Notes: generated by a model not told the origin, from the letters alone. 64,000 bases of DNA from Candidatus Woesearchaeota archaeon (GCA_016184345.1 JACPCV010000004.1:54453-118452); one strand, 5' to 3'; counted from the first letter of the stretch, positions 1,481 through 50,661 are shown. Made by a program: numbers and translations.

Positions 1481-1747
1481 ATGGAGAGGCAAATGATAAA
1501 AGGAATTAGCATTATTAAAAATTCGGAATATAGAAAGAAAATACTTTTAAGCTTAGTTGATGTTAATTATTTAACGCCTTCTGAAATATCAGAAAAAACG
1601 AAACTTCGCCTTAATCATGTCAGTAACTTTTTAAAAGACTTGAGAGATAATGAACTCATCATATGCCTAAACGATGATGAAAAGAGAGGGCGACTTTACC
1701 AAATAACCGGACTCGGTAAAAAAGTGGCAAAAGAAAATGGAAACTAA
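1481..1747 (+). CDS. Small winged-helix transcriptional regulator (controller-like) at the head of the methyltransferase operon
   Basis: 88 aa, helix-turn-helix-like core (LTPSEISEKTKLRLNHVSNFLKDL). Overlaps the methyltransferase start by 11 nt. AT-rich codon usage like the rest of the island. Confidence 0.45.
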   Translation: MERQMIKGISIIKNSEYRKKILLSLVDVNYLTPSEISEKTKLRLNHVSNFLKDLRDNELIICLNDDEKRGRLYQITGLGKKVAKENGN

Positions 1748-2558
1748 AATAAACCGGATAATTCCGGGTGACTGTTTGGAAACAATAAGGAATCTTCCGA
1801 ACGAATCGGTAGATTTGATAGTTACAGATCCACCATTTAACATAGGGAAAAAATATAACTCTTATAAAGACAAGATGAAAAAAGAGGAATATATTAGATG
1901 GTGTGAGAACTGGCTTACAGAATGTATAAGAATTTTAAAACCTCACGGAAGTTTATATTTATTTAATTACCCTGAGAATAATGCTTATCTAATGCCGTTT
2001 TTAGACAAAAATATGGTTTTTAAAAGATGGATGACTTGGCATTACCCAACAAATACAGGAATGTCACCAACAAATTATACAAGGTCACAACACAGTATTT
2101 TATTTTACACTAAAACAGAAAAAGCAAGGTGGAATAAGAATCATATAGCCGAGCCGTATCGTAATCCGACAGATAAACGGATACTAGAGAGAATAAAAAA
2201 CGGAAGCAATGGCAAAACCCCTTATGACGTATTTCATTATAACATTGTTAAAAATGTAAATAGAGACAAAACAGAGCACGTTTGTCAGCTTCCGATTGAA
2301 CTTGTTGAAACATTCATCAAAGCGAGTAGTAATGCGGGAGATCTAGTTTTTGATCCTTTTATGGGTTCTGGAACTGTAGCTGTTGCCTCAAAAAAATTGG
2401 ACAGGAATTATTTAGGTTGTGAAATTGATAAATACTATTGTAAAATCATAAATGAAAGATTAGCAGAAGTAGAAAAGCCATTGCACAATTTCATAGTTGA
2501 AGACGCAAAAAAGGAGCATAAACCTGCAAGAGTTGAAGCGATAACTTCTTTTTTATAA
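1737..2558 (+). CDS. DNA amino-methyltransferase, beta class (N6-adenine or N4-cytosine)
   Basis: Motif IV TDPPFN near the N-terminus and motif I FDPFMGSGT near the C-terminus. 273 aa. Confidence 0.85.
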   Translation: METKINRIIPGDCLETIRNLPNESVDLIVTDPPFNIGKKYNSYKDKMKKEEYIRWCENWLTECIRILKPHGSLYLFNYPENNAYLMPFLDKNMVFKRWMTWHYPTNTGMSPTNYTRSQHSILFYTKTEKARWNKNHIAEPYRNPTDKRILERIKNGSNGKTPYDVFHYNIVKNVNRDKTEHVCQLPIELVETFIKASSNAGDLVFDPFMGSGTVAVASKKLDRNYLGCEIDKYYCKIINERLAEVEKPLHNFIVEDAKKEHKPARVEAITSFL

Positions 2559-3113
2559 AACTACTTTTTGTCTTTTTAGCTTAATTGTGCCTCTGCATGT
2601 TCTTATAAATCCGCCAAAGAATACAAGTTTATCTTTTTTGTCATAAATTGTTTTAGCAGATAAAGATGGCCCATAAAAATTATTTTGAATGTTTGATTTC
2701 CAATTTTCTTTTTCAAGATGAACTAAACAGCAAAAGAATTCGTCAAAATTTCCACCCCACGAGACCATAAGGTAATCAAATGGTCTTTTGCTAAATTCTC
2801 CACCTGTCCAGCTGTTATCTGTGGAAGTCATTTTTATCTCCATAGGAACATTAATTTTTGTGAAGGTAAGGTCTGGATCTCTATCTGCTGATGCTCTTTT
2901 GACTTCGTAACCTAATTTTTTGCTAAAAGTATCGGCGCAGGCTTTTTCCATTATTTTACCAATCAATTCAGAAATATTTTTTCTGCTTAAACCCAAATCT
3001 CCATACTCATGGTTAAATTTCTTCATCCTTAAAACTACAATTTTAAGAGACTCAAAAAGTGTCTTTTTTGTTAAGCCAAATTTTTGCAAATCAGCATTTA
3101 CTTTCTTTGCCAT
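2553..3113 (-). CDS. Putative type II restriction endonuclease (PD-(D/E)xK)
   Basis: 186 aa, convergent with and overlapping the 3' end of the methyltransferase by 6 nt. Contains RDPDLTFTKINVPMEIKM, a PD...ExK catalytic signature. Confidence 0.5.
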   Translation of the reverse strand: MAKKVNADLQKFGLTKKTLFESLKIVVLRMKKFNHEYGDLGLSRKNISELIGKIMEKACADTFSKKLGYEVKRASADRDPDLTFTKINVPMEIKMTSTDNSWTGGEFSKRPFDYLMVSWGGNFDEFFCCLVHLEKENWKSNIQNNFYGPSLSAKTIYDKKDKLVFFGGFIRTCRGTIKLKRQKVVL

Positions 3114-3363
3114 TACCTGATAAAATCGCGTACACCTTAAATATAATTAACACAAACTAGACACCAACTAATAATACAACCCCTGTTGTCTTATCCGTCT
3201 TTTTCATGCTTGAACAAGACATAAATTACCATTTCGGGAACGTGCAGCCACCCAGAGCTTACCTTATGGGCTATATCAGAATGGTTCAGTTAAATGCTGA
3301 AGAGATAGACAAGCTGTTGTGGAGTTCCACCCGCCATCCGCCACGAACAATTTATAGAAATCG

Positions 3364-4239
3364 TCAATAATTTCTAATAACAACTTCGTTTATCACTCCT
3401 CTTTTGGCGCCGATGCAATTAATGGCTCTCCTCGCTTTAACCGTTACGATATTGAAATCCGAGTATAATTCTCTTATGAAAGGCGTATCACTGTTGCTTA
3501 ACATTAGCAAGCAATGTTTCTTATCCAGCTCTTTAAATTCCTTAGCTAACTGCCTCTGTTCATTTTCTAAAAAAGCGCCTTTTTGGTAAGATGTGAAGCT
3601 GGCAGTTTTTGTCAATGGGAAATATGGCGGATCCATATAAACAAAATCGTCCTCTTCTGCTTTTTTTACAGCTTCAGTGAAATCGGAAACCGATAGCTCA
3701 GCATTCTGCAAAAACTTTGAAGCCATCCTTAGTTTAACTTCTTGAAGTATAGCAGGTTTCTTATATTTACCAAAAGGAACGTTAAACTTGCCTTCCGAAT
3801 TTACCCTGTAAAGCCCGTTAAAGCACGTTTTGTTCAAGTAAATGAAAATTGCTGCTTTCTCCAGCCCATGTTTCATGGTGTTAAACTTTTGTCTTTGCTC
3901 ATTAAAATACGCTTTATTGTTATCCTTATCCCTATGTTCCCTCAATAGAGGGATGAGTTCATCTACATTATCTCTTACTGATTTGAACGTATTAATCAAA
4001 TCTTCGTTAATGTCAAATAGAAAACTTTGCGACGGGTTAAACTTCTGTTTCACGTTAAAGAATACGGCTCCGCTGCCTAAGAATATCTCCAAAAAATGGT
4101 TGAACTTTTGAGGGTAAAGCTCCGAGAATTGCCTTAATAGTTGGGTTTTCCCGCCTGCCCATTTAATGAATGCTGGATTGGCTATTTGCATCTGTTCTAA
4201 TATCTGAAAATTGCCTTTAAATGTGTTTTGAAACTCCAT
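3364..4239 (-). CDS. Dam-like N6-adenine DNA methyltransferase (alpha class, D12 family)
   Basis: N-terminal motif I FLEIFLGSGAV followed by DPPY (FVYMDPPYF). 291 aa. Similar to the Dam/DpnM family. Confidence 0.85.
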   Translation of the reverse strand: MEFQNTFKGNFQILEQMQIANPAFIKWAGGKTQLLRQFSELYPQKFNHFLEIFLGSGAVFFNVKQKFNPSQSFLFDINEDLINTFKSVRDNVDELIPLLREHRDKDNNKAYFNEQRQKFNTMKHGLEKAAIFIYLNKTCFNGLYRVNSEGKFNVPFGKYKKPAILQEVKLRMASKFLQNAELSVSDFTEAVKKAEEDDFVYMDPPYFPLTKTASFTSYQKGAFLENEQRQLAKEFKELDKKHCLLMLSNSDTPFIRELYSDFNIVTVKARRAINCIGAKRGVINEVVIRNY

Positions 4240-9877: not shown

Positions 9878-10630
9878 TCACCTGAAAAAGTCACTGATAA
9901 AATCATTCATGGTGAAAAAGCCCTTCTTCCCCTTGAGCCACTCAGCGGCCATCACAGCGCCAAGGGCAAAGCCAGCCCTGCTCCTCGCAGTGTGCTTGAG
10001 CTCAATTGTGTCTGCCTCACTGTCAAAGCCGACAACGTGAGTGCCCGGAATTGAACCGCCTCTAATGCTTGCAAAGTGCACCTCATCGGGGTTTATCCTG
10101 CGCTCAAGCTTTTCATACTGGGCCTGCTTCTTCCTGCCAATGTTTTTGAGCAGGATTTCAGCAATGCTCTTCGCCGTGCCAGAAGGGCTGTCAAGCTTCT
10201 GGCTGTGGTGAAGCTCATAGCCGAACACGTCATATTCCGGAACCTTGTTTACCAGCCTGGCAGCAGCCTCAACAATTCTGTAAAAGACATTGACACCAAC
10301 TGAAAAGTTTGAGCTGTAAATAAAGCCAATTCCAGACTGGCCAACAAGCTGCTTTGCGTCAGTAATGCTGTCATACCAGCCCGTGGTGCCGACAACCATG
10401 TTCTTCCCTGCAGCGGTAACCCTGGAAATGTTCGTAAGCGCAGCTGCAGGCATTGTGAAATCAATGACAACATCAGCGTCCTTGAAGCAGCTGCCTGAGC
10501 CGTCAACCTCCTTGTAAGTTGCTGCTGGCTCAGACTTGTCAATAATCGCGCAAACCGTGTGGCCGCGGAGCTTTGCAACCCGCTCCACCTCCCTGCCCAT
10601 CTTCCCGTAGCCAATCAGGGCAATTTTCAT
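9878..10630 (-). CDS. dapB: 4-hydroxy-tetrahydrodipicolinate reductase
   Basis: 250 aa, MKIALIGYGKMG NAD(P)-binding N-terminus and a DapB C-terminal domain. Confidence 0.9.
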   Translation of the reverse strand: MKIALIGYGKMGREVERVAKLRGHTVCAIIDKSEPAATYKEVDGSGSCFKDADVVIDFTMPAAALTNISRVTAAGKNMVVGTTGWYDSITDAKQLVGQSGIGFIYSSNFSVGVNVFYRIVEAAARLVNKVPEYDVFGYELHHSQKLDSPSGTAKSIAEILLKNIGRKKQAQYEKLERRINPDEVHFASIRGGSIPGTHVVGFDSEADTIELKHTARSRAGFALGAVMAAEWLKGKKGFFTMNDFISDFFR

Positions 10631-11538
10631 TCTACTACCCCCATGCCAGCCAGCACCTTCCTGAGCGTTTCCCTGTTCTCAGGGCGGAGCTCACACAGCG
10701 GAAGCCGGAGCGGCCCGGCCGGCATGCCCGCCATTTCCATTGCCTCCTTGATGGGTATCGGGTTTGTCTCAATGAACGCAGCCTTGAAGAGGGGAGCAAG
10801 GTATGAGTTCACTTTTTCAGCTTCCGCATAATTTTTCTGCATCGCGTATGCGCACAGGTCAGCTACCTTGCGCGGCAGCAGGTTGCTGATGACTGAGATA
10901 ACTCCCACTCCTCCTGCTTTCATCAGCTCAAGGGTCATGTTGTCATCTCCGCTTAAAACAACAAAGTCCTTCGGCATCTTTGCAATGACATCCTTCATCT
11001 GGTTCAGGTCGCCTGACGCTTCCTTGACGCCAACAATATTCTTGATCCCCTTGAACCGCTCCATTGTAGCAGTCTCAATATTCACTGCAGTCCGCCCCTT
11101 GATGTTGTATACGATGATGGGAATGTCAACTGCCTCAGCCACTGCCTTGAAGTGCCTGTAAAGCCCTTCCTGGGTTGGCTTGTTGTAATATGGCGATACA
11201 ATGAGCACGGCATCTGCGCCAAGCTCTTTAGCCACTCTGGTATGCTCAACTGTCGTAGCAGTGGAGTTTGTCCCTGTCCCGACAATTACCGGTATCCGCT
11301 TGCGGGCAGTTTCAACAACTGCAGTGATGATGGCCTTGCGTTCCTCTTCAGTAACAGTAGGCGATTCGCCTGTTGTCCCAAGCGGAACAAGCCCTGAAAT
11401 TCCCTGCTGTATCTGAAATTCAACGTTCTCCTTCAATCCTGTGATGTCCAGGCTGCCGTCCTGCCTGAAAGGCGTAACCATGGCGGTTATCGCACCTGAA
11501 ATCCTTACAGTTTTTTCATTTGAACCCATTGGTACCAC
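10627..11538 (-). CDS. dapA: 4-hydroxy-tetrahydrodipicolinate synthase
   Basis: 303 aa, TIM-barrel lyase with the GTTGE motif (LGTTGESPT) and Schiff-base lysine region VGVKEASGD. Confidence 0.9.
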   Translation of the reverse strand: MVPMGSNEKTVRISGAITAMVTPFRQDGSLDITGLKENVEFQIQQGISGLVPLGTTGESPTVTEEERKAIITAVVETARKRIPVIVGTGTNSTATTVEHTRVAKELGADAVLIVSPYYNKPTQEGLYRHFKAVAEAVDIPIIVYNIKGRTAVNIETATMERFKGIKNIVGVKEASGDLNQMKDVIAKMPKDFVVLSGDDNMTLELMKAGGVGVISVISNLLPRKVADLCAYAMQKNYAEAEKVNSYLAPLFKAAFIETNPIPIKEAMEMAGMPAGPLRLPLCELRPENRETLRKVLAGMGVVE

Positions 11539-11552
11539 CCCGTAATCTTGTT

Positions 11553-12953
11553 TTAGGCTTTCAATTTGCCTTGCCTCGCCTTTGCGACTGCTGCAACCGG
11601 AGCCTGGGCAACCTGTGCGCCAAAAAACTCGCCATGCAAAGCCCGGACAGCCTCGGCAAGGCGACTCTCATTTATAACGATGCTCACGTTAACGTCAGCG
11701 TAACTCTGCGACGTCATCTCAATATTAATGCCAAGCTTTCCGAGCATTGAAAATATCTTGCCCCCAACACCCGGCCTTGACTTTATGCCCATACCTATCA
11801 CGCTTATGGATGCTCTGTCTTCCAAAACAGACACGTTTGCAAACTCCTTGAGCTTCTCAACAAGCTTTGAAACGTCAAACGACTTATCAACAGTCACTGA
11901 AACATTCACTTCAGACGTTGATACCAGGTCAACAGGAACCTTGTAATCGTTAAAAAGCTTGAACACGTGGTAAAGGAAGCCATACGCCCTGAGCATCCTT
12001 GCCGAGTTAATGTTAATAACGTAAATCTTATTCTTTGAGGTTATGGCTGTCACATGCTCCTTTCTGGCAACGTTTTTCAGGATAAGCGTGCCTTTGCCTG
12101 AAGGGTTGAACGTGTTAAGCACCCTTACCGGGATGTTCCTGTCCAATGCAGGCAGGATTGTCTTTGGGTGGAGCACCTTTGCGCCAAAATAAGCAAGCTC
12201 GCTCGCCTCCTCAAACGAAACAACGTCAACAGTCCTTGCATCAGGCACAATCCTCGGATCAGCAGTCATGACGCCGTCAACGTCAGTCCAAATCTGGATT
12301 TCCCCTGCGCCAAGGGCAGCGCCGAAAATCGCGGCAGAATAATCGCTGCCTCCCCTTCCGAGAGTTGTGACTTCACCCTGCTCATTCTTGCCGATGAAGC
12401 CTGTAACAACAGGGATAGCGCCTTTTGGAATAACTGAAACGGCAGCCGCAATCCGCTGGTAAGCGCCCGGAAGAATCTCCGCATTGCCAAAATTCTGGTC
12501 TGTAACCACGCCAAGGTCATAAGCATTAAACGCCTGGGCGCTGAGACCGATTTTCCTTGCGGAAGCAGCAAAAATATTTGAAGACATCCGCTCGCCAAAC
12601 GAGGCAACGTAGTCCGTAGTCCGGGTGGTGAGCTCCTTGACGAGGGAGATGCCAAAAAGGACCTGCTCAAGCTCGGCAACATCCTCTGAGATGATGCCAG
12701 GGTCAAGCCCCAAGCCCTGAATAACTGTTTGGTGCCTTTCCTCAATTGCACCTATCATTTCTTTCGCGGAAAAGCCCCTCTCAAGGGCTTTCCTGGCTGA
12801 TGCAAGGAGAAGGTCAGTAACCTCTGAGAGGGCAGAAACCACAACAAAAGGGGCACGGCCTTTGCTTGCAGCCACTATGCCAACAGACTGCCGTATGCTT
12901 TCAGCACTGCCAACAGACGTGCCGCCAAACTTCATCACAATCACAGCAACCAT
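11553..12953 (-). CDS. lysC: Aspartate kinase
   Basis: 466 aa, KFGGTSVGS kinase N-terminus and C-terminal tandem ACT domains. First gene of the operon. Confidence 0.9.
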   Translation of the reverse strand: MVAVIVMKFGGTSVGSAESIRQSVGIVAASKGRAPFVVVSALSEVTDLLLASARKALERGFSAKEMIGAIEERHQTVIQGLGLDPGIISEDVAELEQVLFGISLVKELTTRTTDYVASFGERMSSNIFAASARKIGLSAQAFNAYDLGVVTDQNFGNAEILPGAYQRIAAAVSVIPKGAIPVVTGFIGKNEQGEVTTLGRGGSDYSAAIFGAALGAGEIQIWTDVDGVMTADPRIVPDARTVDVVSFEEASELAYFGAKVLHPKTILPALDRNIPVRVLNTFNPSGKGTLILKNVARKEHVTAITSKNKIYVININSARMLRAYGFLYHVFKLFNDYKVPVDLVSTSEVNVSVTVDKSFDVSKLVEKLKEFANVSVLEDRASISVIGMGIKSRPGVGGKIFSMLGKLGINIEMTSQSYADVNVSIVINESRLAEAVRALHGEFFGAQVAQAPVAAVAKARQGKLKA

Positions 12954-17211: not shown

Positions 17212-19349
17212 CTGACAACAGCATCATCAGCCGCGTCAACAGGGATGATTTCCTTGCTGGTCTTCAGCGGCTTAGCGCCATACATAACCTTCTCGTCCTT
17301 GACCCTGAGGTTAAGCCTGTAGAACTCGTCAATGGCAAGCTGCTTCCTGTTTCCGGCTATCTTTTCGGGGTCAGAGCCTTCAGGGAAAACCAAATCGCCC
17401 GGTTCAGAGCCCTGCGGAAAAACCACGGTAACCCTGCTGCCGTCATCAGCGGCCAGCAACATCCCCTGGCTTTCATAGCCGCGAAGCTTGGCATGCTTGA
17501 GGTTTGAAACAACAACAACCTTCTTCCCCAGAAGCTCGTCCTTTTTGTAGTAAGGCCTCAATCCGGCAACGAGCTGGATGACTTTTGGCTTGCCCTTGCC
17601 AATGTCAACCTTCAGGACATAAAGCTTGTCAGCATCAGGATGCTCTGCTATTTCACCTATCACGCCAACCTTAAGGACAGCGGGAAAAACAGGGGCGAGG
17701 GCAATTGTCTCCTCAATTGGGGCAAAGACAATCCTTGCAGGGTAAAGCTTCTTTGCAGACGGGAACCTGCCCAAGTCAGCAAAACTTAAGTGCTCAAAGT
17801 TCTCATAGCCAAAAAGCCGCAGAATCTTCTCGGAATACTTTGGCAGTATGGGGAAAGCCAGCAGCATGAGATCCCTGACTATCTGTGCTGCGACAGAAAC
17901 AACCCTGTGGCACTTCTTCTTGTCTGTTTTTATCAGCTGCCACGGCTGGTTTTCCTGGAAATAGCGGTTGCCAATGCTGCTCAGCTCAAGGAGCTCCCTG
18001 ACAGCATCCTTAAAGCTGTATTCCAGGTAATGCCCAGCTATGCTGTCATACTTAGGCTGCAGCTGCTGGAGGAAAAGCTTCTCATCAGTGCCGAGAGGCT
18101 CAAGCTTTGAATCAAAATTGTTGTTAAGGAACACAAGCGTGCGGTGCACAAAATTAGCCAGGTTGTTGACCAGGTCATTATTGGTTTTCTCCTTAAAATC
18201 ATTGAAGTCAAGGTTTATGTCACTCACTGACTTTGTCAAATGCGAGGCATAGTAAAACCTCAGGAACTCCGGCTCATGCCCTGAAACAGCAAGGTAATCC
18301 TTTGCTGTCAGGAAGTTGCCCCGTGACTTTGACATCTTCTCGCCGTTTACTGTGAGGTGGCCGTGCACTGCAATGTCGCTTGGGAGGCTAAAGCCTGCTG
18401 CGGCCAGCATGGCGGGCCAGAACAGGAGGTGGAAATAGATTATGTCCTTCCCTATAAAGTGGATTATTCTCGCATCAGGATTCTGCCAGTAAGCCTCAAG
18501 CGCCGTCTTGCCCAGCTTGTCCTTACAGTATTTCTCAGTTGCCGCAATGTAGCCGATTGGGGCATCAAGCCAGACATAGTAATACTTGTTAAGCTCACCC
18601 GGAATCTTAAAGCCAAAGTAGGGGCCATCCCTGGAGATGTCCCAGTCCTGCAGCCCTGACTTAATCCAGCCCTCAACAAAATGCCTCACATCGCTCTGGA
18701 TGCCCTTGTTGCCATCCAGCCACTCCTGCAGCTGCTGCGAAAAAGAGCTTAGCTTGAAGAAGTAATGAAGGCTCTGCTTCCTCACAGGGGCTAAACCGCA
18801 GATTGCACATCTCGGCTCAATAAGCTCAACAGGCTGGTAAGTGGCATTGCACTTCTCGCACTGGTCGCCATACTGGTCTTCAGCACCGCATTTTGGGCAT
18901 TTTCCTTTCACATACCTGTCGGGAAGGTAGCGCTTGTCATTCTCGCAGTAAGTGAGCTCAACAAGGCGTTGCTGGATAAGCCCCTTCTCATTAAGCCTGT
19001 TGAAGAAAAGGTCGCTGTAGAACCTGTTCTCAGGGCTGTTAGTGGAATGGTAAACGTCAAAGTTCACGAAAAAAGAAGCAAAATCAGCAGTGTGCTCATC
19101 ATAATACCTCTTGATAAGCTCCTCAGGCGCAATTTTTTCCTTTGCAGCAGCAAGCTCAATCGGAGTCCCATGCGTGTCATCGCCGCAAACGTAAATAACA
19201 TCCTTCCCCGACAGCCTCAGGAACCTCACAAATATGTCTGCCTGGATGTACTCAACAAGATGCCCAAGATGGATAGGACCATTAGCATACGGCAACCCCG
19301 CAGTCACGAGTATTTTCTCTTTCCGGCTGGCACCTGATTCTTTCACCAT
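17208..19349 (-). CDS. metG: Methionyl-tRNA synthetase with a C-terminal tRNA-binding domain
   Basis: 713 aa, HLGHLVEY (HIGH), KMSKS, zinc knuckles (CPKCG, CEKCN). C-terminal EMAP-like tRNA-binding domain. Confidence 0.95.
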   Translation of the reverse strand: MVKESGASRKEKILVTAGLPYANGPIHLGHLVEYIQADIFVRFLRLSGKDVIYVCGDDTHGTPIELAAAKEKIAPEELIKRYYDEHTADFASFFVNFDVYHSTNSPENRFYSDLFFNRLNEKGLIQQRLVELTYCENDKRYLPDRYVKGKCPKCGAEDQYGDQCEKCNATYQPVELIEPRCAICGLAPVRKQSLHYFFKLSSFSQQLQEWLDGNKGIQSDVRHFVEGWIKSGLQDWDISRDGPYFGFKIPGELNKYYYVWLDAPIGYIAATEKYCKDKLGKTALEAYWQNPDARIIHFIGKDIIYFHLLFWPAMLAAAGFSLPSDIAVHGHLTVNGEKMSKSRGNFLTAKDYLAVSGHEPEFLRFYYASHLTKSVSDINLDFNDFKEKTNNDLVNNLANFVHRTLVFLNNNFDSKLEPLGTDEKLFLQQLQPKYDSIAGHYLEYSFKDAVRELLELSSIGNRYFQENQPWQLIKTDKKKCHRVVSVAAQIVRDLMLLAFPILPKYSEKILRLFGYENFEHLSFADLGRFPSAKKLYPARIVFAPIEETIALAPVFPAVLKVGVIGEIAEHPDADKLYVLKVDIGKGKPKVIQLVAGLRPYYKKDELLGKKVVVVSNLKHAKLRGYESQGMLLAADDGSRVTVVFPQGSEPGDLVFPEGSDPEKIAGNRKQLAIDEFYRLNLRVKDEKVMYGAKPLKTSKEIIPVDAADDAVVR

Positions 19350-19372
19350 GAAAGAAAAAGGAACAGGGATTG

Positions 19373-19380
19373 TTTAAATA
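19373..19380 (-). promoter_or_regulatory. TTTAAATA box upstream of metG (leaderless start)
   Basis: Box lies 24-31 nt upstream of the ATG at 19349. The same box recurs at several other genes in the window. Confidence 0.4.
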
Positions 19381-19428
19381 GTTTGCCGAAAAAGGCCAAA
19401 ATAGAAGGCGAGAACGGCTCGATAAGAA

Positions 19429-19866
19429 TTAAATGCCCTCATCAGCAGCTTCTTCACCAATGGCCTTCCCCTTCTTCTCCTTCAGCTTCTTGGTGACGTC
19501 AATGCCGGCACTGCACTTGCCGCACTGGAAGCGCAACGTGGGAATGCCCTCAATGTTTTTCCTCTTGAACGGAATTTGCGCCTCGCCGCTGCTGCCGCAA
19601 CTCGGGCATTTATACTGTGAATTTGCAGTCAAGGATTCTTCGTATGACTTCTTGTCAATGCTGTAGCCGCAGCCGGGGCAGGCATACTCCTTTGCCCTGA
19701 TGAGGGCCTTGCCCTTCTTATCCCGGGGCTTCCCCATGATACTTTTTTTGCACTTGGGGCAGGCCTGCTTGAAAACCCAAACCTTGACACTGCCTTTACC
19801 TCCTTCAAGGGAGCGCTGCGTAAAATAAACGCACTCGTCCATGGACTCAGGCTGCTTTAGTGGCAT
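19429..19866 (-). CDS. Zinc-ribbon protein with four CxxC pairs, hypothetical
   Basis: 145 aa with CPKC, CPGC, CPSC and CGKC spaced as two zinc ribbons. TATTTAAAG box 24-32 nt upstream of the start. Confidence 0.5.
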   Translation of the reverse strand: MPLKQPESMDECVYFTQRSLEGGKGSVKVWVFKQACPKCKKSIMGKPRDKKGKALIRAKEYACPGCGYSIDKKSYEESLTANSQYKCPSCGSSGEAQIPFKRKNIEGIPTLRFQCGKCSAGIDVTKKLKEKKGKAIGEEAADEGI

Positions 19867-20008
19867 GAAGCCGGAAACCGAACAGCGGTTATTTAAAGTT
19901 TTTGAAATGCTATTTTTGCCTGAAGCCTGATGAAGCCATGATTCAGCCTGGCGGCAAAAAAAGATTAATTTTATAAATCAGCGCAGAATCTGCAGCCGCT
20001 GAACAAGC

Positions 20009-20239
20009 ATGAGCAAGAAAAGCAAGAAGAAGGAAAAGAAAATCAGCGCCAAGGCGCTCAGGTACGCGAAGTTCCAGAAGGAAAAGCCCGGAACCATTGA
20101 CTTGACAATGCCTGATCTCACCGAAGAGCAGAACAAGCAGAAGCAGCTAGACCAGGACAGGATTGACATGTTCCTCCGCAGAAACAGGAACCCGCCTACA
20201 AAGGAGATTTCCGAAAGAAGGATGAGGAGCAAGCGGTAA
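20009..20239 (+). CDS. Small lysine-rich basic protein, hypothetical
   Basis: 76 aa. TTTTATAAAT box ~31 nt upstream. Competes with an antisense 117-aa low-complexity ORF that looks spurious. Confidence 0.35.
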   Translation: MSKKSKKKEKKISAKALRYAKFQKEKPGTIDLTMPDLTEEQNKQKQLDQDRIDMFLRRNRNPPTKEISERRMRSKR

Positions 20240-20284
20240 GAAAAACAGGTTCTGAAGATTTTTTTGTTATTGAAGAATAAAGAT

Positions 20285-20683
20285 CTATTCCCCAAGCACT
20301 TCCTTAACCCATTTGTAAAATCTCTCGGCATCCCTCAAAGCGTCAGAAGCGTCCGATTTACTCATGAGCTTTTCTTCGTACTCTGCAGTGCTTTTAATCC
20401 GCAAAAGGTTGCTTAATTGCTGGTTTTTCTTCCCAATCTCAGGAAGGTTAAGCTTACTGAGCAGCTTGATAACCGCTTCATGCCTGCTGCCGCTGTTACG
20501 AAGGCCGAGATGCTTTACTGTAAGAGCATCGGCAGCGCTTATGCCGCAATGAACAGCCGCGATAACAGCCATATTCCAGCTATCGCTGGCAAAAGCAGAA
20601 TTCATGCCGGTATGGCACTCTTCCGCCTTCTTTAAAAAGTTCTTATAAAAGCTTGATGCCACGTTTACTGTATTAGCTTCCAT
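20285..20683 (-). CDS. HEPN-domain protein (toxin partner of the upstream MNT)
   Basis: 132 aa, R-x5-H motif (RNSGSRH). Overlaps the upstream nucleotidyltransferase gene by 19 nt. Confidence 0.65.
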   Translation of the reverse strand: MEANTVNVASSFYKNFLKKAEECHTGMNSAFASDSWNMAVIAAVHCGISAADALTVKHLGLRNSGSRHEAVIKLLSKLNLPEIGKKNQQLSNLLRIKSTAEYEEKLMSKSDASDALRDAERFYKWVKEVLGE

Positions 20684-21267
20684 AAATCCTCACCCTTAAT
20701 CAAGTTGTAACTTTCAAGAACACCCTTGACAAAAGGCGTATTCTTCTTGCGGACAAACTCATTTTTTGACATAATATAAGGCGCTATCACATTACCGTAC
20801 CTTTTGACAAAAAACTGCTGTTTTTCCTCCACAAACTTCTGAACTGCTTCCTTATTGCCAGTAATGAAAAGCACATCGACATCGCTATCCGGCTTCTCTG
20901 TTCCCCTTGCAACGCTGCCGAAAACAGCGCATGAAACCATCCCATTCGGAATCTCCCTTTTTAATTCTTGGACGAAATGATCCTTAAACATTTCCGCCTC
21001 TACGCCAAATAACGTCTGGAGCGCGTTATATGCGTAGCTACCAGTGTTCAAGGTTATGAGATTTGAGCGGCCATGGTATTCCAGCTTTACCAAATTTGAG
21101 GCTTGCAGCTCTCGCAGCGCGCGCCTCACGCCAGTGTGCGTAAGCCGTATGGACTCCGCCAACTCTCTCCCGGTAAAGGTCTTTGCCTTGAATTTAAAGA
21201 GCATCCTGAGTACGTTAACCTTAACCCTACTCCCCAGCACATCCTCCAAAAAAGCGTGCAGTCTCAT
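20665..21267 (-). CDS. Minimal nucleotidyltransferase (MNT) with N-terminal wHTH
   Basis: 200 aa, GS-x9-DxD motif (AVFGSVARGTEKPDSDVDVLFI). Confidence 0.75.
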   Translation of the reverse strand: MRLHAFLEDVLGSRVKVNVLRMLFKFKAKTFTGRELAESIRLTHTGVRRALRELQASNLVKLEYHGRSNLITLNTGSYAYNALQTLFGVEAEMFKDHFVQELKREIPNGMVSCAVFGSVARGTEKPDSDVDVLFITGNKEAVQKFVEEKQQFFVKRYGNVIAPYIMSKNEFVRKKNTPFVKGVLESYNLIKGEDLWKLIQ

Positions 21268-21360
21268 TTTTCATATGGAAACTTATTATTCCATGTGGAA
21301 ACTAAAAGTTCCACTACTATTTAAACCTTTCCATGCCCTAAAGTTTAACCTAGAAGCGTA

Positions 21361-21374
21361 GTAGCCCCGCCCGG
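21361..21374. repeat. 14-bp copy of the tRNA-Gln 3' end (gtagccccgcccgg)
   Basis: Identical to the tRNA-Gln 3' end at 23830-23843 on the + strand, in direct orientation. Confidence 0.6.
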
Positions 21375-21406
21375 ACAGGCAATGGTCTTGTCAACAGCCA
21401 GGGCTG

Positions 21407-21784
21407 TCAAGCTACTTTAACTTCAAACCTGGACTCGTCCTCTCCTTTCAAGATCAGACCACCACCCTTCTCTATGCTGTAGAACTGGGCAAATTCCTTT
21501 GGAATCCTCACCATTAAGGCTTCTCCAAGCTTTCCCACCTTTACAGGAATTCCATGCCTTAGCTTGTTAAATACGAGCATTTTCTGGGCATCTTCAGGGT
21601 GCAGCACGGTCTCATTGCATTTCGGGCATTTCCAAGCCCTAACAGACATTCCTTCAACTACCACTTTTGCCTTGCCCATCTTGCAGTTATCATTCTGGCA
21701 AAGATGCTCTGCTTCCCAAATATCACGCTTCATTTTCATCACCCTTTCGCTTATGTTTTTTGGAGTAAGTGAACTTACCAACAT
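21407..21784 (-). CDS. Zinc-ribbon plus AbrB/SpoVT-like small protein (putative antitoxin)
   Basis: CQNDNC...CPKCN zinc ribbon, then a swapped-hairpin-like C-terminus (ALMVRIPKEFAQFYSIEKGGGLILKGEDESRFEVKV). The 5' region overlaps the upstream gene. Confidence 0.4.
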   Translation of the reverse strand: MLVSSLTPKNISERVMKMKRDIWEAEHLCQNDNCKMGKAKVVVEGMSVRAWKCPKCNETVLHPEDAQKMLVFNKLRHGIPVKVGKLGEALMVRIPKEFAQFYSIEKGGGLILKGEDESRFEVKVA

Positions 21785-22040
21785 GAATCAGCCTCCATAC
21801 ATCCTCCTGAAAACCATCAGGATACCTTACACTTGTCTGGGCAACAACAGCCTTAAGCACCTTATTTCCTTTCCTCAAGCACTGCTCAACTATTCCTTCC
21901 TTTCTTTTGCCAGTGCCACAATCATAACCGTCCTCAAGTATCTCCACAACATCGTTCAAATCTATGTTCTCAGACACGGATTCCCTGCCAGCTGCCAAAG
22001 TGACTTCAATCCTAAGGCCTTTGTACCTGACGTCAAACAT
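21723..22040 (-). CDS. Small conserved hypothetical protein (DUF4258-like, putative toxin)
   Basis: 105 aa, immediately upstream of and overlapping the zinc-ribbon/AbrB gene. Family assignment is from memory and uncertain. Confidence 0.3.
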   Translation of the reverse strand: MFDVRYKGLRIEVTLAAGRESVSENIDLNDVVEILEDGYDCGTGKRKEGIVEQCLRKGNKVLKAVVAQTSVRYPDGFQEDVWRLIHVGKFTYSKKHKRKGDENEA

Positions 22041-22129
22041 AAAGCGCCCTCAAATAGTATCATAAATGATATCATAATAGATATCCTTATATTAATATTT
22101 TTCGGTTTTTTGTGCTGAATCAAGAATAG

Positions 22130-22143
22130 CCCCGCCCGGCGGA
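22130..22143. repeat. Second 13-14-bp copy of the tRNA-Gln 3' end (atagccccgcccgg)
   Basis: 13 nt identical to the tRNA 3' end, direct orientation. Confidence 0.6.
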
Positions 22144-22197
22144 ATGGCCGGGATCGGACAGTCGAATGTTATCTTTGGTTAAAAAGAGTTTATCCTG

Positions 22198-22680
22198 TTA
22201 TTTTGCGGCCTTCTCGCACAAGCTAAACATGTTGGTAAAGAAGAATTGGGCGTTCTTAACGCTTTCCTTGGCAGGTTCCAAATTGGCCTGCGGAATTCTT
22301 TTGTAAGTGAACCTTCCCCGCTTTCCCTTCTCAAACTCAAAAATATGCAGAAGCGTGTCTGCCTTAACCAACATGTTTTTGTAGATGTTCAACAGCTCAA
22401 CATCAACAATTCCGTTGTCAACGAGCCTTGAAAAGGCGTCAAAAGTTTTCCTATGTTCTTCCGGAGCTTCAGTTTTTATGCCTTTCAGCAGCAAATACGC
22501 TTTGGCTGAGTAAAAAATAGAATAGTAAGCGTGTGAGATTGTTGCACTGTAATAAGTGTCTTGTTTCATGCCAAAAACGGTGACCTGCAGGCTTATATCA
22601 TCGCTAATCCGCAGAATCATAATTGAAAGGTTCAGTTCATTCTGCGACCGCTGCAGGTATAGTTTATATTCGGAATCCAC
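22198..22680 (-). CDS. HEPN-like domain protein (partner of the upstream MNT)
   Basis: 160 aa, alpha-helical, overlaps the upstream MNT gene by 17 nt. HEPN assignment rests on context and helical composition. Confidence 0.5.
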   Translation of the reverse strand: MDSEYKLYLQRSQNELNLSIMILRISDDISLQVTVFGMKQDTYYSATISHAYYSIFYSAKAYLLLKGIKTEAPEEHRKTFDAFSRLVDNGIVDVELLNIYKNMLVKADTLLHIFEFEKGKRGRFTYKRIPQANLEPAKESVKNAQFFFTNMFSLCEKAAK

Positions 22681-23314
22681 GCTTCATCCCCTCCAATACA
22701 ATGCCATAGAAAATCTGGTGATTATGCACGGCAAGGTGTTTCCGCGCTATTTGCTTTCCCAGATTCTCCTCATCATTCGTAAGCATCTCAATCATTTCCG
22801 CCCGTGGGATTACATGAACATCAACTTCAACCAAAATTTTAAGCTTCGCACTATTCACTGCTGCTTCAATCAGCTTCACTTTTTCCGGATCCTCAACGAA
22901 AATAGCGATATCTATATCGGAAGTTCGTTTTTGCTCGCCGACCGCATAAGAACCAAAAACAGCGACAGAATAGAACTGCGTGACAAGATCAAGTTCACCG
23001 GTAATCCTGGCCACTGCCAGCTTTACCTCTTTTCCAGCCCGCCTATCATTACAAAGAGCAATATAGCAAAAGGTGATATCATTTTGCAGGTTAAGCGTCA
23101 GGAGGCCAGATTTTCCAACTTTCCGCTCGATAATAACTTCTTCCCTTTTCAACTGGTTGATTGCCAAAGCCAAAGAGTTATTTGACTTCTCCCGAGAGTC
23201 TTTTTTAATCTGGCCGCGGGTATGTTCGGCAAATGGGTTCCTTGCGAACACTTCAAATATTTTCAGCTGTTTTTGAGTAAGCATAAAACCACCTAATTGG
23301 TTTATATGAACCAT
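22664..23314 (-). CDS. Minimal nucleotidyltransferase (MNT) with N-terminal wHTH
   Basis: 216 aa, AVFGSYAVGEQKRTSDIDIAIFV. Confidence 0.75.
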   Translation of the reverse strand: MVHINQLGGFMLTQKQLKIFEVFARNPFAEHTRGQIKKDSREKSNNSLALAINQLKREEVIIERKVGKSGLLTLNLQNDITFCYIALCNDRRAGKEVKLAVARITGELDLVTQFYSVAVFGSYAVGEQKRTSDIDIAIFVEDPEKVKLIEAAVNSAKLKILVEVDVHVIPRAEMIEMLTNDEENLGKQIARKHLAVHNHQIFYGIVLEGMKRGFRI

Positions 23315-23388
23315 AATAATGGTTATTTATATATTTTTCCATTTGGGATATGTCTTTAGCCGTCTGAATTACCCCGACGGTGGTTTGA

Positions 23389-23452
23389 CACCCAAATACG
23401 CGGCCTAAACTGCCCCTACAGGCCTTGTAAAGCCAAATACACGGCCTAACTG
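23389..23452. repeat. Two direct ~21-bp repeats (ccaaatacgcggcctaaactg / ccaaatacacggcctaactgg) in a divergent promoter region
   Basis: Found by eye between the MNT gene (start 23314) and the 23473 ORF. About 18/21 identical, spaced ~36 bp. Confidence 0.4.
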
Positions 23453-23472
23453 GCTCGTTTAGAGAACCGAAT

Positions 23473-23763
23473 ATGTCACAGTGCATTAGTTGTAGGAAAA
23501 GAATTAAGCCTTGGTTCAGGGAATGTTATCATTGTCATTCTCAGCATAGAGGTAGTTCAAACCTAATTCTAGGCATCATTTCTTTTATTTGGTTGCCCTC
23601 AATTCCCACATTGCTGTTGGTCGGATTCGGAAATGCGTTCAGGCAAGCGGGGATGCCAAACAATCTACTTTTGATATTTTGGGCGGTGTCTAGCATTATT
23701 CTAATTCTAGTTAGGGAACAAGAACTCCATGACATTTATGAACAGATAATGAAGCTATTTTAG
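23473..23763 (+). CDS. Small zinc-ribbon membrane protein, hypothetical
   Basis: 96 aa: CISCRKR...CYHC then two TM helices. Confidence 0.35.
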   Translation: MSQCISCRKRIKPWFRECYHCHSQHRGSSNLILGIISFIWLPSIPTLLLVGFGNAFRQAGMPNNLLLIFWAVSSIILILVREQELHDIYEQIMKLF

Positions 23764-23830
23764 GAAAAACGACAAATCTTAAACGAACTAATCGAGGGCT
23801 GATCACCCTCGAAAATCCGATATGAGTGAG

Positions 23831-23933
23831 TAGCCCCGCCCGGATTCGAACCGAGGTTACCGGAGCCAGAGTCCGATGTGCTTCGTCGCTGGCCTCCCGA
23901 AGAGGTCAACTTTGACCGCTACACCACGGGGCT
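23831..23933 (-). tRNA. tRNA-Gln (anticodon CUG) with a ~29-nt non-canonical intron in the D-loop
   Basis: 5' AGCCCCGTGGTGTAG, the archaeal Gln/Glu-type start. Acceptor AGCCCCG/CGGGGCT, D-stem GTGT/GCAC, anticodon stem TCGGA/TCCGG with loop CTCTGGC, T-arm CTCGG-TTCGAAT-CCGGG, discriminator A. About 29 extra nt (GGTCAAAGTTGACC and CCTCTTCGGGAGG hairpins) lie between the D-loop and the D-stem 3' strand. Confidence 0.6.
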
Positions 23934-42059: not shown

Positions 42060-42171
42060 CGCCGGGAGCGGGAACTTCACCTCCCTAGGAAAGGATTTGA
42101 ACCCGCAGGGCCTCTGGGGAAGCCCACTCGTTTCTGAAACGAGCGCGTCTACCTGATTTCGCCATCCCGGC
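42060..42171 (-). tRNA. tRNA-Leu (anticodon CAG), class II, with a ~22-nt intron in the T-loop (59/60)
   Basis: Acceptor GCCGGGA/TCCCGGC, 3-bp D-stem GCG/CGC, anticodon arm CTCGT-TTCAGAA-ACGAG, long variable arm. T-stem GCGGG...CCCGC is interrupted after TTCAAA by TCCTTTCCTAGGGAGGTGAAGT. Confidence 0.6.
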
Positions 42172-42562
42172 GTGAAATAAGCACTGCAAATCAAGATTCA
42201 AATGCCTTTCGTGCAGATTTCCGGAAAACTTTCGAATTATTCAGAAGAGTTTTGTTTAATGCCGTAAATTTTTCACAAATTCGTTAATTTCCCGAAAAGT
42301 TTCCGGTTTGCCCGGATTATTTCGCCCAGGATTTTAGAAAAGTTTATTAATAACCTCACCCATACGGTAGATAAGACCTCTGGGGAAGTTTAAGCGCACG
42401 CCGGTTTCGCCTTTCTTTTTTATTTTTGATCTATTTTTCTCATAGCTGAACAAGTAGTTCACAAAAGTTTATTAAGAAGTTCCACTTAATAACAAATAGA
42501 TTGTTGTGCACAGTTTAGGCGTATACCAATTACGCCATTTTCTTTTTATTTTTTAAACTTAA

Positions 42563-47897: not shown

Positions 47898-49448
47898 TTA
47901 AAAGTGTCCTATTTTCTTTTGACTTTCCCTCTTTGTTGATAAATCTTTAATTCCTTGCGCTTCTTTGAATGGCATATAGCTACTCGGTAATCTTAATCTC
48001 GTATCATCTAAAAATTCTTTAATGGTAATTATTTGTATTTTTGGATATTCTTCTTCCATCATCCCAATTTTAAAGAAGCCTTCCTTATTCGCTTCTTCTT
48101 TCATTGGCTTTGTTGGGTCTTCCAAAGTTATGAGAACCCCTCCAATAGCTTTTTCCCTTTTCATATCACCATTTAAAGCAGAAATATCCTTCCTTTGAAC
48201 CCCGCCGCTCTTAACCTGAATAAGAATTTTCTCAAAGTCCTTTTCAGAAGTTCTTATGATAACATACCCGTCTATTCCTTCATCGGCACTTTTCTTTTTT
48301 GAAGGGATTGCATTAACTAAACTTAAAGCCCAATATTGAAATTCAAACCTGTTTTTTAAAGCGAGTTCTTTTGCACCCCCAACGTCTTTCGGAATACCAT
48401 CAAGACTAATCTTTATGCCTTTTTCAAATAAGTGAAATTGTTTTTCTAACCTGCTTTTAATAAGAGTAATGGCTAATGTTGTAATGTCAATTCCGACCCA
48501 TTTTCTATCTAAATGTTCAGCAACAGAAACCGTAGTTCCACAACCGCAAAAAGGGTCAAGAATAACATCGCCCTTATTTGAACTTACACGGATAATTCGT
48601 TCCAAAAGTGCCTCTGGTTTTTGAGTGGGATAACCTAAAACTTCTTGGTCTCTTTTCAAAGTCATCATATCAATACCGTGCAAAGGCTTTACATCACCCC
48701 ACCAATCCCTCAAAGGATAGCCTTTTGCCTCATCTAAATATTGCCTATACCTCCCCCCACTTCCATCAGGTTGTAATTGAAAAAGCCTTCCTTTTTCGTC
48801 TATGTGCGTAAAATACATTTTTATATAATTATCATCATAAGGGGTAAATTGTATGTTAAAAGTGTATTCGCTACTCTTCGTATAAAAGAAAATTATGTCG
48901 TGCTTTCTTGAATATTTCTTAGCTTTCGGGCTTTCCCTTCCACTATAACACCATGCGATTTCATTCCTAAAATTGTTTTTATCAAATATGCTGTCTAAAA
49001 TTATTTTTAGATAATGGCTTGCGGTTGGGTCGCAATGTAAGTAAATAGACCCTGTTTTTTTCAAAACCCTATGCAGTTCTATTAATCTTATTGTCATCAT
49101 TACTAAATAAGCCATCATATCGTTTTCGCCTAAAATCTTCTTAAATCCTTGAATTAAATCAGAAATCTCAGTGTTTATTTTTGTTTTAGAAGGTCTTGTG
49201 CCTATCAGTTCTTCAAAAGTTCTTTCTGCCTCTTCCGTCCAATGCCATGTATCATCAAAAGCTTTCAGTTGTGCACCATTTTTAACAAGCCCTTCTTTAA
49301 ACAGAATATTGTATGCTCTATTGGAATTAAATGGCGGGTCAAGATAAATCAGGTCAATGCATTCATCTGAAAATCTATCTCTTAATACTTCAAGATTATC
49401 GCCAAAAAATAAGGTTCTATTTTCCATTAAGCTTATTTTTTGCACCAT
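47898..49448 (-). CDS. Beta-class DNA amino-methyltransferase fused to a C-terminal Mrr-like PD-(D/E)xK nuclease domain
   Basis: 516 aa. DPPFNSNRAYN (motif IV) then DPFCGCGTT (motif I). C-terminal ~180 aa carry ADEGIDGYVI and ILIQVKSG, resembling the Mrr catalytic GIDG / Q-x-K motifs. Confidence 0.7.
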   Translation of the reverse strand: MVQKISLMENRTLFFGDNLEVLRDRFSDECIDLIYLDPPFNSNRAYNILFKEGLVKNGAQLKAFDDTWHWTEEAERTFEELIGTRPSKTKINTEISDLIQGFKKILGENDMMAYLVMMTIRLIELHRVLKKTGSIYLHCDPTASHYLKIILDSIFDKNNFRNEIAWCYSGRESPKAKKYSRKHDIIFFYTKSSEYTFNIQFTPYDDNYIKMYFTHIDEKGRLFQLQPDGSGGRYRQYLDEAKGYPLRDWWGDVKPLHGIDMMTLKRDQEVLGYPTQKPEALLERIIRVSSNKGDVILDPFCGCGTTVSVAEHLDRKWVGIDITTLAITLIKSRLEKQFHLFEKGIKISLDGIPKDVGGAKELALKNRFEFQYWALSLVNAIPSKKKSADEGIDGYVIIRTSEKDFEKILIQVKSGGVQRKDISALNGDMKREKAIGGVLITLEDPTKPMKEEANKEGFFKIGMMEEEYPKIQIITIKEFLDDTRLRLPSSYMPFKEAQGIKDLSTKRESQKKIGHF

Positions 49449-49779: not shown

Positions 49780-50661
49780 ATGGAAATGCAAACAAAATGC
49801 GTCTTTTGCAAAGCCACCAACTATATCAAGTGGGGTACTCGCAAAACAGAGAACAGGGGTAGTATTCAGAGGTATAAATGCCTGTCTTGTAAGAAGCGAT
49901 TTACTAATGATGATGGTTTTTACAGGATGCGAAATAGCGAAGAGAAGATTACAGCAGCTATTGACCTTTACTTTTCTAACTTGTCCAGTAGGAAGGTTAG
50001 GAACCACTTTAGAAGGCATTGGAACCATAATGCCAGTCATATGAGCATACTTGATTGGTGCCGAAGATACACCCTTAAAATCCAAAAATACGTGGCTACA
50101 ATGCAGCCACAGCTAAGTGGGCAGTTCTATATGGACGAAACCGAAATAGACAGAGGCAGGGGAAATGATGTTTTTTGGTGTAACGTGGACTGGGGAACAC
50201 GATTCATTAACTCAACAATGTATAGTCCTCACAATCAAACTGTAGAGGATGCTGCTACTTTCCTTAAAGCTACTGTTGCCAAAGGACTGCCAAAATACAT
50301 TCAGACAGATGCGGGTGTTTTTTACCCACAGGCATTTCAAAAGACCTTCTACTCAAGTAAAGCACAAGGTTTGACAGTAGAACACCGCATCCAGAACTAC
50401 CACAAAACAGGCAAGCACAACGTAAGGATTGAAACCGTCTTTATGAAGGTCAAAGACCGAGTGGACGATTTTAGAGGGCTTAAAGCCCTATGGAGTGCTC
50501 CGATACTAATGCAGGGCATAATATTACAGCATAACTTCATAGAAGCACACACAACAACAGGAAAAGTGCCTTCAGAATTAGCAGGTCTTAAACTGGAGGC
50601 AGGACAAAACAGATGGCTTGGAATGATAAAGTTGGCTTCGTCGGGAACAAAAGGTTTATAA
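49780..50661 (+). mobile_element. DDE transposase with N-terminal zinc ribbon, IS6-like
   Basis: 293 aa. CVFCKATN...YKCLSCKK zinc finger, then FYMDETEIDRGRG...NVDWGTRFI, resembling the DETY(V/I)K and D..R core of IS6-family enzymes. No matching terminal inverted repeats found. Confidence 0.5.

Follow-up and report, generated by a model that had tools for sequence, protein, structure and literature searches.

Predicted toxin-antitoxin cassettes inserted serially between copies of a tRNA-Gln 3′ end in a Woesearchaeota genome

Introduction

She et al. reportedly described, in 2002 and 2004, integrated elements that are arrayed in tandem at tRNA genes of archaea. In bacteria, the cis-mobilizable elements (CIMEs) of the systems formed by integrative conjugative elements (ICEs) and integrative mobilizable elements (IMEs) of Streptococcus are bounded by attachment (att) sites, lack recombination genes, accrete in tandem, and are probably mobilized by an integrase acting in trans. 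Toxin-antitoxin cassettes are frequent in chromosomal integrons, such as the superintegrons of Vibrio, where they have a stabilizing effect and the newest cassette lies nearest to the fixed insertion site. Integrated elements of archaea, which are 2.6–98 kb long and encode an integrase by definition, use tRNA genes and gene 3′ ends as targets, form tandem arrays, and have short att sites (8–26 bp) in some lineages (PMC6563490). In this study, we analyzed a stretch of 64,000 nucleotides (hereafter, the window) from the genome of a DPANN archaeon, Candidatus Woesearchaeota archaeon (GCA_016184345.1, JACPCV010000004.1:54453-118452), in which an island of three to four small toxin-antitoxin cassettes, 3.5 kb in total, is located at the 3′ end of a tRNA-Gln gene.

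This island resembles the archaeal arrays at tRNA genes in its direct repeats of the target end, in the reconstitution of the target, and in the reuse of the site. Its units, however, are only 0.76 to ~1.7 kb long, consist of a toxin-antitoxin operon without a recombinase gene, recur as such, and reside in a DPANN host. With CIMEs, the island shares the bounding att repeats, the lack of recombination and transfer genes, and the tandem arrangement at one site, whereas CIMEs are bacterial and derive from identifiable ICEs with a known integrase, and the cassettes described here are much smaller and yielded no helper in the sequences searched (see below). As in integrons, small cassettes are separated by a repeated site and are inserted at one fixed proximal site. 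Unlike in integrons, no IntI is encoded beside the array, whose neighbors are a Cys-rich 398-aa protein (Cys398) and K76; the repeat is the 3′ end of a tRNA and not an imperfect palindrome of the attC type, and each cassette has its own predicted promoter. A full-text literature search returned no toxin-antitoxin-only mini-cassettes with tRNA-end repeats in DPANN archaea, which is no proof of novelty. With moderate confidence, we propose that a recombinase acting in trans inserted circular, integrase-less toxin-antitoxin cassettes serially and site-specifically at the tRNA-Gln 3′ end.

Results

Direct repeats at the tRNA-Gln gene

The gene regarded as the integration target (attB) encodes tRNA-Gln(CUG) and is located at 23831–23933 on the minus strand, with exon 1 at 23912–23933, a D-loop intron at 23882–23911, and exon 2 at 23831–23881. 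Because of this 30-nt non-canonical intron in the D-loop, the gene was missed in the window by ARAGORN and by Rfam at the gathering threshold. After splicing in silico, the sequence was called as tRNA-Gln(ctg) by ARAGORN, indicating that the gene is still intact despite the insertions, and a regular cloverleaf was laid out by hand.

A scan of both strands of the window detected three exact plus-strand copies of the 13-mer TAGCCCCGCCCGG, at 21362–21374, 22127–22139, and 23831–23843. The repeat (X) comprises the 3′ strand of the T-stem, the 3′ strand of the acceptor stem, and the discriminator base. Copy 3 (23829–23844, plus strand), reading AGTAGCCCCGCCCGGA, consists of the 3′ end of the tRNA itself with 2 nt added, and it is here that the tRNA meets the newest insert. 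Copy 2 (22125–22140, plus strand) forms the boundary between two cassettes, A (22198–23314) and B (21407–22040), and copy 1 (21360–21375, plus strand), again AGTAGCCCCGCCCGGA, separates B from a third cassette, C (20285–21267); the genes of all three cassettes are on the minus strand. The junction equivalent to copy 1 lies directly on the tRNA in two related loci, L036 and L041, which are described below.

A first-pass annotation of this DNA, made from the sequence alone, had stated that the tRNA 3′ end recurs twice in the same orientation, which the three exact copies bear out. Of the positions that it gave (21361, 22130, and 23830–23843), that of copy 2 (22130) was off by 3 nt, the 13-mer starting at 22127. 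It had also proposed extending the copies and counting the 13-mer elsewhere. Extension revealed that copies 1 and 3 run 2 nt further than the tRNA end and have 16 nt in common, and that copy 2 differs from them (AATAGCCCCGCCCGGC). As for the count, no further exact copy of TAGCCCCGCCCGG was present in the rest of the 64-kb window, and when up to two mismatches were allowed, the sole additional match was at 36928 on the opposite strand. By simple arithmetic, 128 kb of two-strand sequence should contain ~0.002 additional exact copies of a given 13-mer; chance therefore does not account for two more copies on the same strand within 2.5 kb of the tRNA end.

Empty and partly filled sites in related genomes

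Syntenic loci in related metagenome-assembled genomes were collected by a scan of reference genomes anchored on the MetRS gene. The window sequence itself was recovered in Logan contigs from several sequencing runs, which were 100% identical to it over their full lengths. In L004 and L010, whose MetRS proteins are 78–79% identical to that of the window, the site is empty: the genes for big896, Cys398, tRNA-Gln, and K76 follow one another, and the tRNA end and the K76 stop codon are separated by a 45-nt T-rich spacer with no insert between them. K76, a conserved lysine-rich gene product of 74–76 aa, is encoded immediately downstream of tRNA-Gln in relatives, is 83–90% identical in L002, L003, L004, L010, and L041 (tblastn), and marks the flank of the island in the window (20009–20239, plus strand). 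The original downstream spacer of the tRNA was found at 20240–20284, where it abuts the stop codon of the last gene of cassette C (HEPN_C) and forms the far edge of the island. This segment aligns with the spacer of L004 with a score that was reached by none of 1000 shuffles. It contains no clear copy of the repeat; GGGGAATAG is at best a decayed remnant. Because L004 and L010 have empty sites and the old spacer is kept at 20240–20284, the whole stretch 20285–23830 is inserted DNA.

An intermediate state was observed in L041, the closest relative (MetRS 89% and Cys398 83% identical), and in the metagenome contig L036, both of which carry tRNA-Gln, X, the same left arm (CTAyrCTTCTAGG), and cassette C alone. 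In both loci, cassette C directly follows tRNA-Gln; its homologs are 82% and 92% identical to the window proteins in L041, and its MNT protein is 93% identical in L036. Compared with these loci, two additional units separate the tRNA body from X-C in the window. Since L041 and L036 hold only tRNA-X-C and the window holds further units inside, the insertion is serial: copy 1 and cassette C are older, and the newest unit lies nearest to the tRNA. The earlier suggestions that insertion was serial, with copies delimiting separately acquired units, and that the tRNA-Gln locus be compared among relatives were thus well founded, the synteny break falling exactly at the tRNA-Gln 3′ end. The first-pass annotation also placed a second MNT/HEPN pair just beyond the outermost copy; the position is right, but this pair is itself part of the inserted island.

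The genes flanking the far side of the island also differ among these genomes. Between K76 and Zn145 (19866–20009), the window lacks genes for a DsbD/CcdA-like membrane protein and for a thioredoxin-like product, and between Zn145 and MetRS (19349–19429), it lacks a gene for a protein of ~220 aa. These genes are present in L002–L005 and L010 and are replaced by other genes in L041, which points to lineage-specific deletions next to the island. The possibility that the variable segments around K76, Zn145, and MetRS in relatives are toxin-antitoxin inserts was rejected, as they contain housekeeping genes of the CcdA/thioredoxin type that were lost from the window.

Recurrence of cassette B at tRNA-Gln genes

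Cassette B, a two-gene unit of 0.76 kb, was found at tRNA-Gln in four further, more distant genomes (L033, L037, L039, and L049). L033 contains an array in the order tRNA-Gln X, D, X, B, X, and an unrelated gene. Its B unit is 763 nt long, compared to 765 nt in the window, and the two loci are homologous from the left X through to the last base of the right X. In L033, X is a variant with A for G, which is the sequence of that genome's own acceptor stem. In L037, cassette B is located at tRNA-Gln(UUG) and flanked by the 13-nt repeat CCGCCCGGGGCTA, and in L039, it is flanked by a 26-nt repeat, GTTCGAATCCGCCCGGGGCTATTATT. In L049, whose contig starts after the tRNA, B lies behind another AbrB-type cassette; its near repeat is intact, and its far repeat is degraded (AAGCCCCAGGCTA). 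The intact repeats of L037, L039, and L049 correspond to the end of the resident tRNA and are 13–26 nt long where both ends are readable. A further copy of cassette B, in L040, has neither a tRNA nor repeats.

The cassette genes are more alike between genomes than the flanking core genes. L036 and the window share 72% identity in the core protein Cys398 vs. 93% in the cassette protein MNT_C; the corresponding values are 72% (p208) vs. 89% and 86% (tox105 and AbrB) for L033, and 55% and 37% (p208 and Cys398) vs. 68–74% (cassette B) for L039. These patterns argue for horizontal spread of the cassettes as small mobile units.

These comparisons also bear on whether the repeats are chance GC-rich matches or functional signals, such as terminators or processing sites, placed after operons. 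Every copy does lie just downstream of an operon in the tRNA sense, and inspection of the sequence indicated that a T-arm-like hairpin (CCCGGC/GCCGGG) can be folded from copy 2 and the arm upstream of it. Against such an origin, exact copies are confined to this locus in the window, the repeat variant co-varies with the resident tRNA of each genome, the repeats mark the limits of homology between genomes, and empty sites exist. We consider this explanation barely credible, and the comparative data effectively refute it.

In the lineage of L037, L043, and L049, three different cassettes end in a common arm, AAGTAACCTrAAAGyAATAAAGC (~22–32 nt), before X; it could be an arm particular to this lineage at which a recombinase binds, or a product of homogenization. 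At the tRNA-Gln(UUG)/Pribosyltran locus of this lineage, L037 carries B, L043 a HEPN cassette similar to cassette C, and L049 the AbrB-type cassette followed by B. In L037, a reverse-transcriptase gene (RVT_1 + HTH_40, 431 aa) is located at 10506–11801, ~4 kb from this cassette locus.

Relatives of cassette A at protein-coding genes

Two independent relatives of cassette A were found as two-gene cassettes between long repeats of the 3′ end of a neighboring protein-coding gene. In L044 and L045, the repeat of ~45 nt has two mismatches and takes in the stop codon of a gene with a CarboxypepD_reg domain. In L046 and L047, an exact 45-nt repeat is the end of a PMT_2 gene, with in-frame endings (IY* and IYS*) after both copies. 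The units measure 1268 nt (L044) and 1361 nt (L046). Repeats of a gene 3′ end that supply a substitute stop codon are a layout typical of integrative elements that restore their target. Among the loci compared, no empty sites for the cassettes of L044 and L046 were detected.

Searches for a recombinase or a helper element

No integrase or integrase fragment was detected in the island: its open reading frames (ORFs) and the antisense or overlapping ones gave no recombinase match in Pfam or NCBIfam, and the coding density of the island leaves no room for an integrase gene. The pseudogene fragments for which the first-pass annotation had proposed to look were therefore not present in the island, the antisense ORFs having no Pfam match. 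For the rest of the window, 40 selected ORFs outside 9.9–28.3 kb were read over their first 150 residues, and no integrase was recognized among them. A 31-mer of the tRNA-Gln had no match in viral contigs, and the 20-mer TTCGAATCCGGGCGGGGCTA matched there only in complete tRNA genes of unrelated contigs. The cassette proteins had no relatives among viral contigs, plasmids, and phages, and the records searched likewise gave no copy of the site resembling an attP.

The sole transposase found was an IS6-family protein encoded at 49780–50661 (plus strand), 26 kb from the island (NCBIfam E = 1.2e-18), which carries an N-terminal zinc finger. ORFs near 47898–49448 (minus strand) and 1737–4239 have, by eye, the appearance of DNA methyltransferase or restriction-modification genes. 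These IS6 and restriction-modification-like regions may be further mobile or defense islets. A casposon or the target duplication of a transposon was rejected as the source of the repeats because the unit ends have no terminal inverted repeats, the island encodes no Cas1 or transposase, and the repeats vary in length (13, 16, 26, and 45–50 nt) and hold internal mismatches.

The first-pass annotation had interpreted the island as decayed integrations. In such a scenario, each segment would be the last piece of a larger, integrase-bearing virus or plasmid that entered at tRNA-Gln, and the toxin-antitoxin pair would have resisted loss. It is well established that integrase-bearing elements form tandem arrays at tRNA genes of archaea (PMC6563490). 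From one lineage to another, B has unrelated right arms, which fits different internal deletions joining B to different remnants near attR, and relatives of B and C also occur inside mobile-element-like regions without tRNA repeats (L040 and L042). However, integrase fragments are left nowhere in the island, and the same minimal B unit (763–765 nt in the window and L033) is present in several genomes. Moreover, the cassettes are far more similar between genomes than the core genes, which suggests that the small units themselves were transferred recently, and the MNT/HEPN cassettes of L044 and L046 are also just two genes between repeats. Repeated, independent decay to one minimum would be unparsimonious. 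We thus regard decay as rather unlikely, and the description of the integrations as decayed is doubtful in view of the recurring 0.76-kb B unit and the high similarity of the cassettes.

The failure to find an integrase also fits an explanation by short homology, in which cassettes would loop out between repeats and re-enter by a single crossover over 13–50 nt through host recombination or repair, with tRNA ends favored simply as the sequences best conserved between genomes. The varying repeat length would agree with this, as it corresponds in every case to the length over which the local target is identical, and so would the presence of one cassette family at unrelated targets. On the other hand, 13 nt is very short for homologous recombination, the first acquisition of a new target segment is left unexplained, and it is typically the attP sites of integrases that supply a replacement stop codon or tRNA end. 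These points make recombination over short homology quite improbable, and serial insertion by a recombinase acting in trans is the explanation that we retain.

Genes of the island

Two MNT/HEPN pairs, a zinc-ribbon membrane protein gene, and a DUF4258-like/zinc-ribbon-AbrB pair constitute the gene content of the island, in agreement with the first-pass annotation; the support for DUF4258 is weak and comes from relatives. A TATA-like box and an operator palindrome were recognized by sequence inspection ahead of the first gene of each cassette.

Cassette A consists of MNT_A (22664–23314) and HEPN_A (22198–22680), which overlap by 17 nt. MNT_A is a winged-helix and nucleotidyltransferase protein whose true start is likely at 23284, giving 206 aa, and a TATA-like promoter and palindromic operator were predicted at ~23285–23345. 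In Pfam, the cassette matched NTP_transf_2 (E = 5.9e-11, above the cut-off) and HEPN (E = 2.5e-4); the HEPN score of HEPN_A, 21.6, is just below the cut-off of 22. MNT_A matched MntA of NCBIfam (E = 1.1e-8) with scores below the curated cut-off. More than 321 homologs of MNT_A, typically 206 aa in length, were found, representing a large family in Woesearchaeota.

Cassette C, the oldest insert, consists of MNT_C (20665–21267; winged helix and nucleotidyltransferase) and HEPN_C (20285–20683), with Pfam matches to NTP_transf_2 (again above the cut-off) and HEPN, and its left arm, promoter, and operator were predicted at 21268–21359. Both MNT_A and MNT_C have an N-terminal winged-helix domain and the nucleotidyltransferase motif GSx(9-11)DxD, in the form GSx10DxD (GSYAVGEQKRTSDID in MNT_A and GSVARGTEKPDSDVD in MNT_C). 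The HEPN RNase motif is present in HEPN_C as RNSGSRH (Rx5H), whereas HEPN_A has no Rx4-6H. The two pairs thus resemble type VII HepT/MntA systems in having an MNT gene with GSx10DxD followed by an overlapping HEPN gene, and in the Rx5H of HEPN_C. They differ from these systems in the winged helix of the MNTs, the lack of Rx4-6H in HEPN_A, and the MntA scores under the curated cut-off.

Cassette B consists of tox105 (21723–22040), encoding a protein of 105 aa, and a gene for a zinc-ribbon-AbrB antitoxin (21407–21784); a promoter and GATATC operator repeats were predicted upstream, at 22041–22124. The antitoxin, 125 aa as called, probably starts near 21739, which would give ~110 aa, and has a zinc ribbon fused to an AbrB/MazE-like domain. 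Homology searches gave 37 homologs of the antitoxin and 141 cluster representatives of the toxin. One of the antitoxin homologs contains PF04014, and the window protein weakly matches YgiT/MqsA and doc_partner. Tox105 had no sequence match in Pfam, NCBIfam, or PDB. Among 67 relatives, eight weakly matched DUF4258 (best E = 2.5e-4) and two matched PBECR1, a family of BECR-fold RNases. An AlphaFold2 model of tox105 (pLDDT 89.6) has a beta-alpha-alpha-beta3 topology, and a Foldseek search of PDB with this model gave nothing at E ≤ 0.001. Tox105 is therefore described here as a putative BECR/DUF4258-like toxin, and the toxin-antitoxin activity of all of the cassettes is likewise predicted from their sequences.

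Nearest to the tRNA, ZnMem96 (23473–23763, plus strand) encodes a protein of 96 aa that has two CxxC motifs near its N-terminus and, judging from the sequence, a long hydrophobic segment that spans the membrane; no match was found in Pfam or NCBIfam. The gene is not present in the cassette-A relatives of L044 and L046 and is possibly a separate mini-unit (Z). A comparison of junctions gave a weak candidate for a degenerate repeat at 23368–23383 (minus strand), which, if real, would set ZnMem96 apart as a unit of its own. The distance from this candidate to copy 2 is ~1244 nt, compared to 1268 nt and 1361 nt for the units of L044 and L046. Degenerate candidates at 23368–23383 and at the 20285 junction keep GGGG..TA, and neither is statistically secure. 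Upstream of ZnMem96, an imperfect 20-nt direct repeat, CCAAATAC[G/A]CGGCCTAA(A)CTG, was noticed by eye at 23391–23412 and 23432–23453 and may have a regulatory role.

In independent Logan assemblies of the same strain, breaks fall at window positions 23881, 23874, 23867, 23822, and 23374, several of which are inside the tRNA. Three Logan contigs begin at 23881, the first base of exon 2, and L055 begins at 23374, in the candidate degenerate repeat. These breaks suggest that intron or array variants co-exist in those samples.

Introns of tRNA genes around the site

The intron content of tRNA-Gln is highly variable, the orthologous genes of L004, L010, L033, L036, and L041 having either differing introns or none. 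L036 has no intron, and L004, L010, L034, and L039 have D-loop introns of differing length and sequence. L010 and L041 have an additional long T-loop intron, which directly precedes the 13-nt repeat. The att identity of 13 nt corresponds to the 3′ exon left by the T-loop intron of relatives, and L039, which has no T-loop intron, has a 26-nt repeat. The introns may be linked to limits on the homology of the integration site. In L003 (JACPIH010000027.1, ~1537–1580), exon 1 of tRNA-Gln and a D-loop intron are followed by a T-rich stretch, and there is no exon 2, which means either that the tRNA gene is split or that a deletion has occurred.

Elsewhere in the window, an Rfam tRNA match at 62592–62649 (minus strand) with the anticodon UUU is devoid of the 3′ part of the T-arm and runs into CAACCTTTTTCC...AAAAAGC. 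This sequence resembles the T-loop intron of the L010 tRNA-Gln, and related introns may sit in different tRNAs. A tRNA-Leu(CAG) gene at 42082–42172 (minus strand) has, by reading, an apparent insert of ~21 nt in the T-arm.

Discussion

According to the mechanism that we favor, a circular cassette would recombine with the terminal segment of the tRNA gene at each insertion. The cassette would bring, beside its own promoter, a short copy of the last 13–16 nt of the tRNA; the tRNA would be rebuilt, and the earlier 3′ end and all that lies behind it would be pushed outward. Cassette C, common to the window and L041, would have entered first, followed by B and then A, with Z possibly as a separate unit. 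The recombinase would be encoded elsewhere and act in trans; it could be a host enzyme or a tyrosine integrase of viral or plasmid origin. The mediation by an integrase that the first-pass annotation put forward is an inference. The addiction-type cargo, namely the type VII-like MNT/HEPN pairs and the BECR-like toxin with its AbrB antitoxin, would keep the cassettes in place.

Several observations weigh against this mechanism. No recombinase family appeared in the gene tables of the related loci, and searches of the window, 20 related loci, and viral contigs gave no helper element with this att site. Neither a circular nor an excised form was observed. Cassette C has no recognizable distal repeat in the window and L041. 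The right arms of B differ between lineages, and no conserved attP arm is evident. Finally, relatives of cassette A occur at three unrelated targets, which would require several integrase specificities or a homology-guided recombinase.

It is also conceivable, though unlikely, that toxin-antitoxin operons of DPANN archaea are themselves minimal integrative cassettes, which would stack in an integron-like manner at the tRNA-Gln 3′ exon by means of a host-encoded or homology-guided recombinase and could be retargeted to the 3′ ends of coding genes, with repeats of 45–50 nt there. The unit would then comprise a promoter, two genes, and a short arm with a copy of the target 3′ end, and the locus would be a capture platform without an integron integrase, a notion that we likewise hold to be doubtful. 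Site-specific insertion with the recombinase supplied in trans remains our preferred account of the island.

The movement of toxin-antitoxin genes between genomes has usually been left vague and described as "associated with mobile elements". Here, the mobile unit is delimited to the base, as a 0.76–1.3-kb cassette between copies of the target 3′ end, and empty, intermediate, and filled sites were all observed, together with identity patterns of horizontal spread. The locus also bears on the old idea that tRNA introns limit integration. DPANN archaea have tiny genomes and few recognized mobile elements. If the cassettes are mobilized in trans, they would provide these organisms with a cheap exchange route for defense and addiction genes at a DPANN tRNA hot spot.

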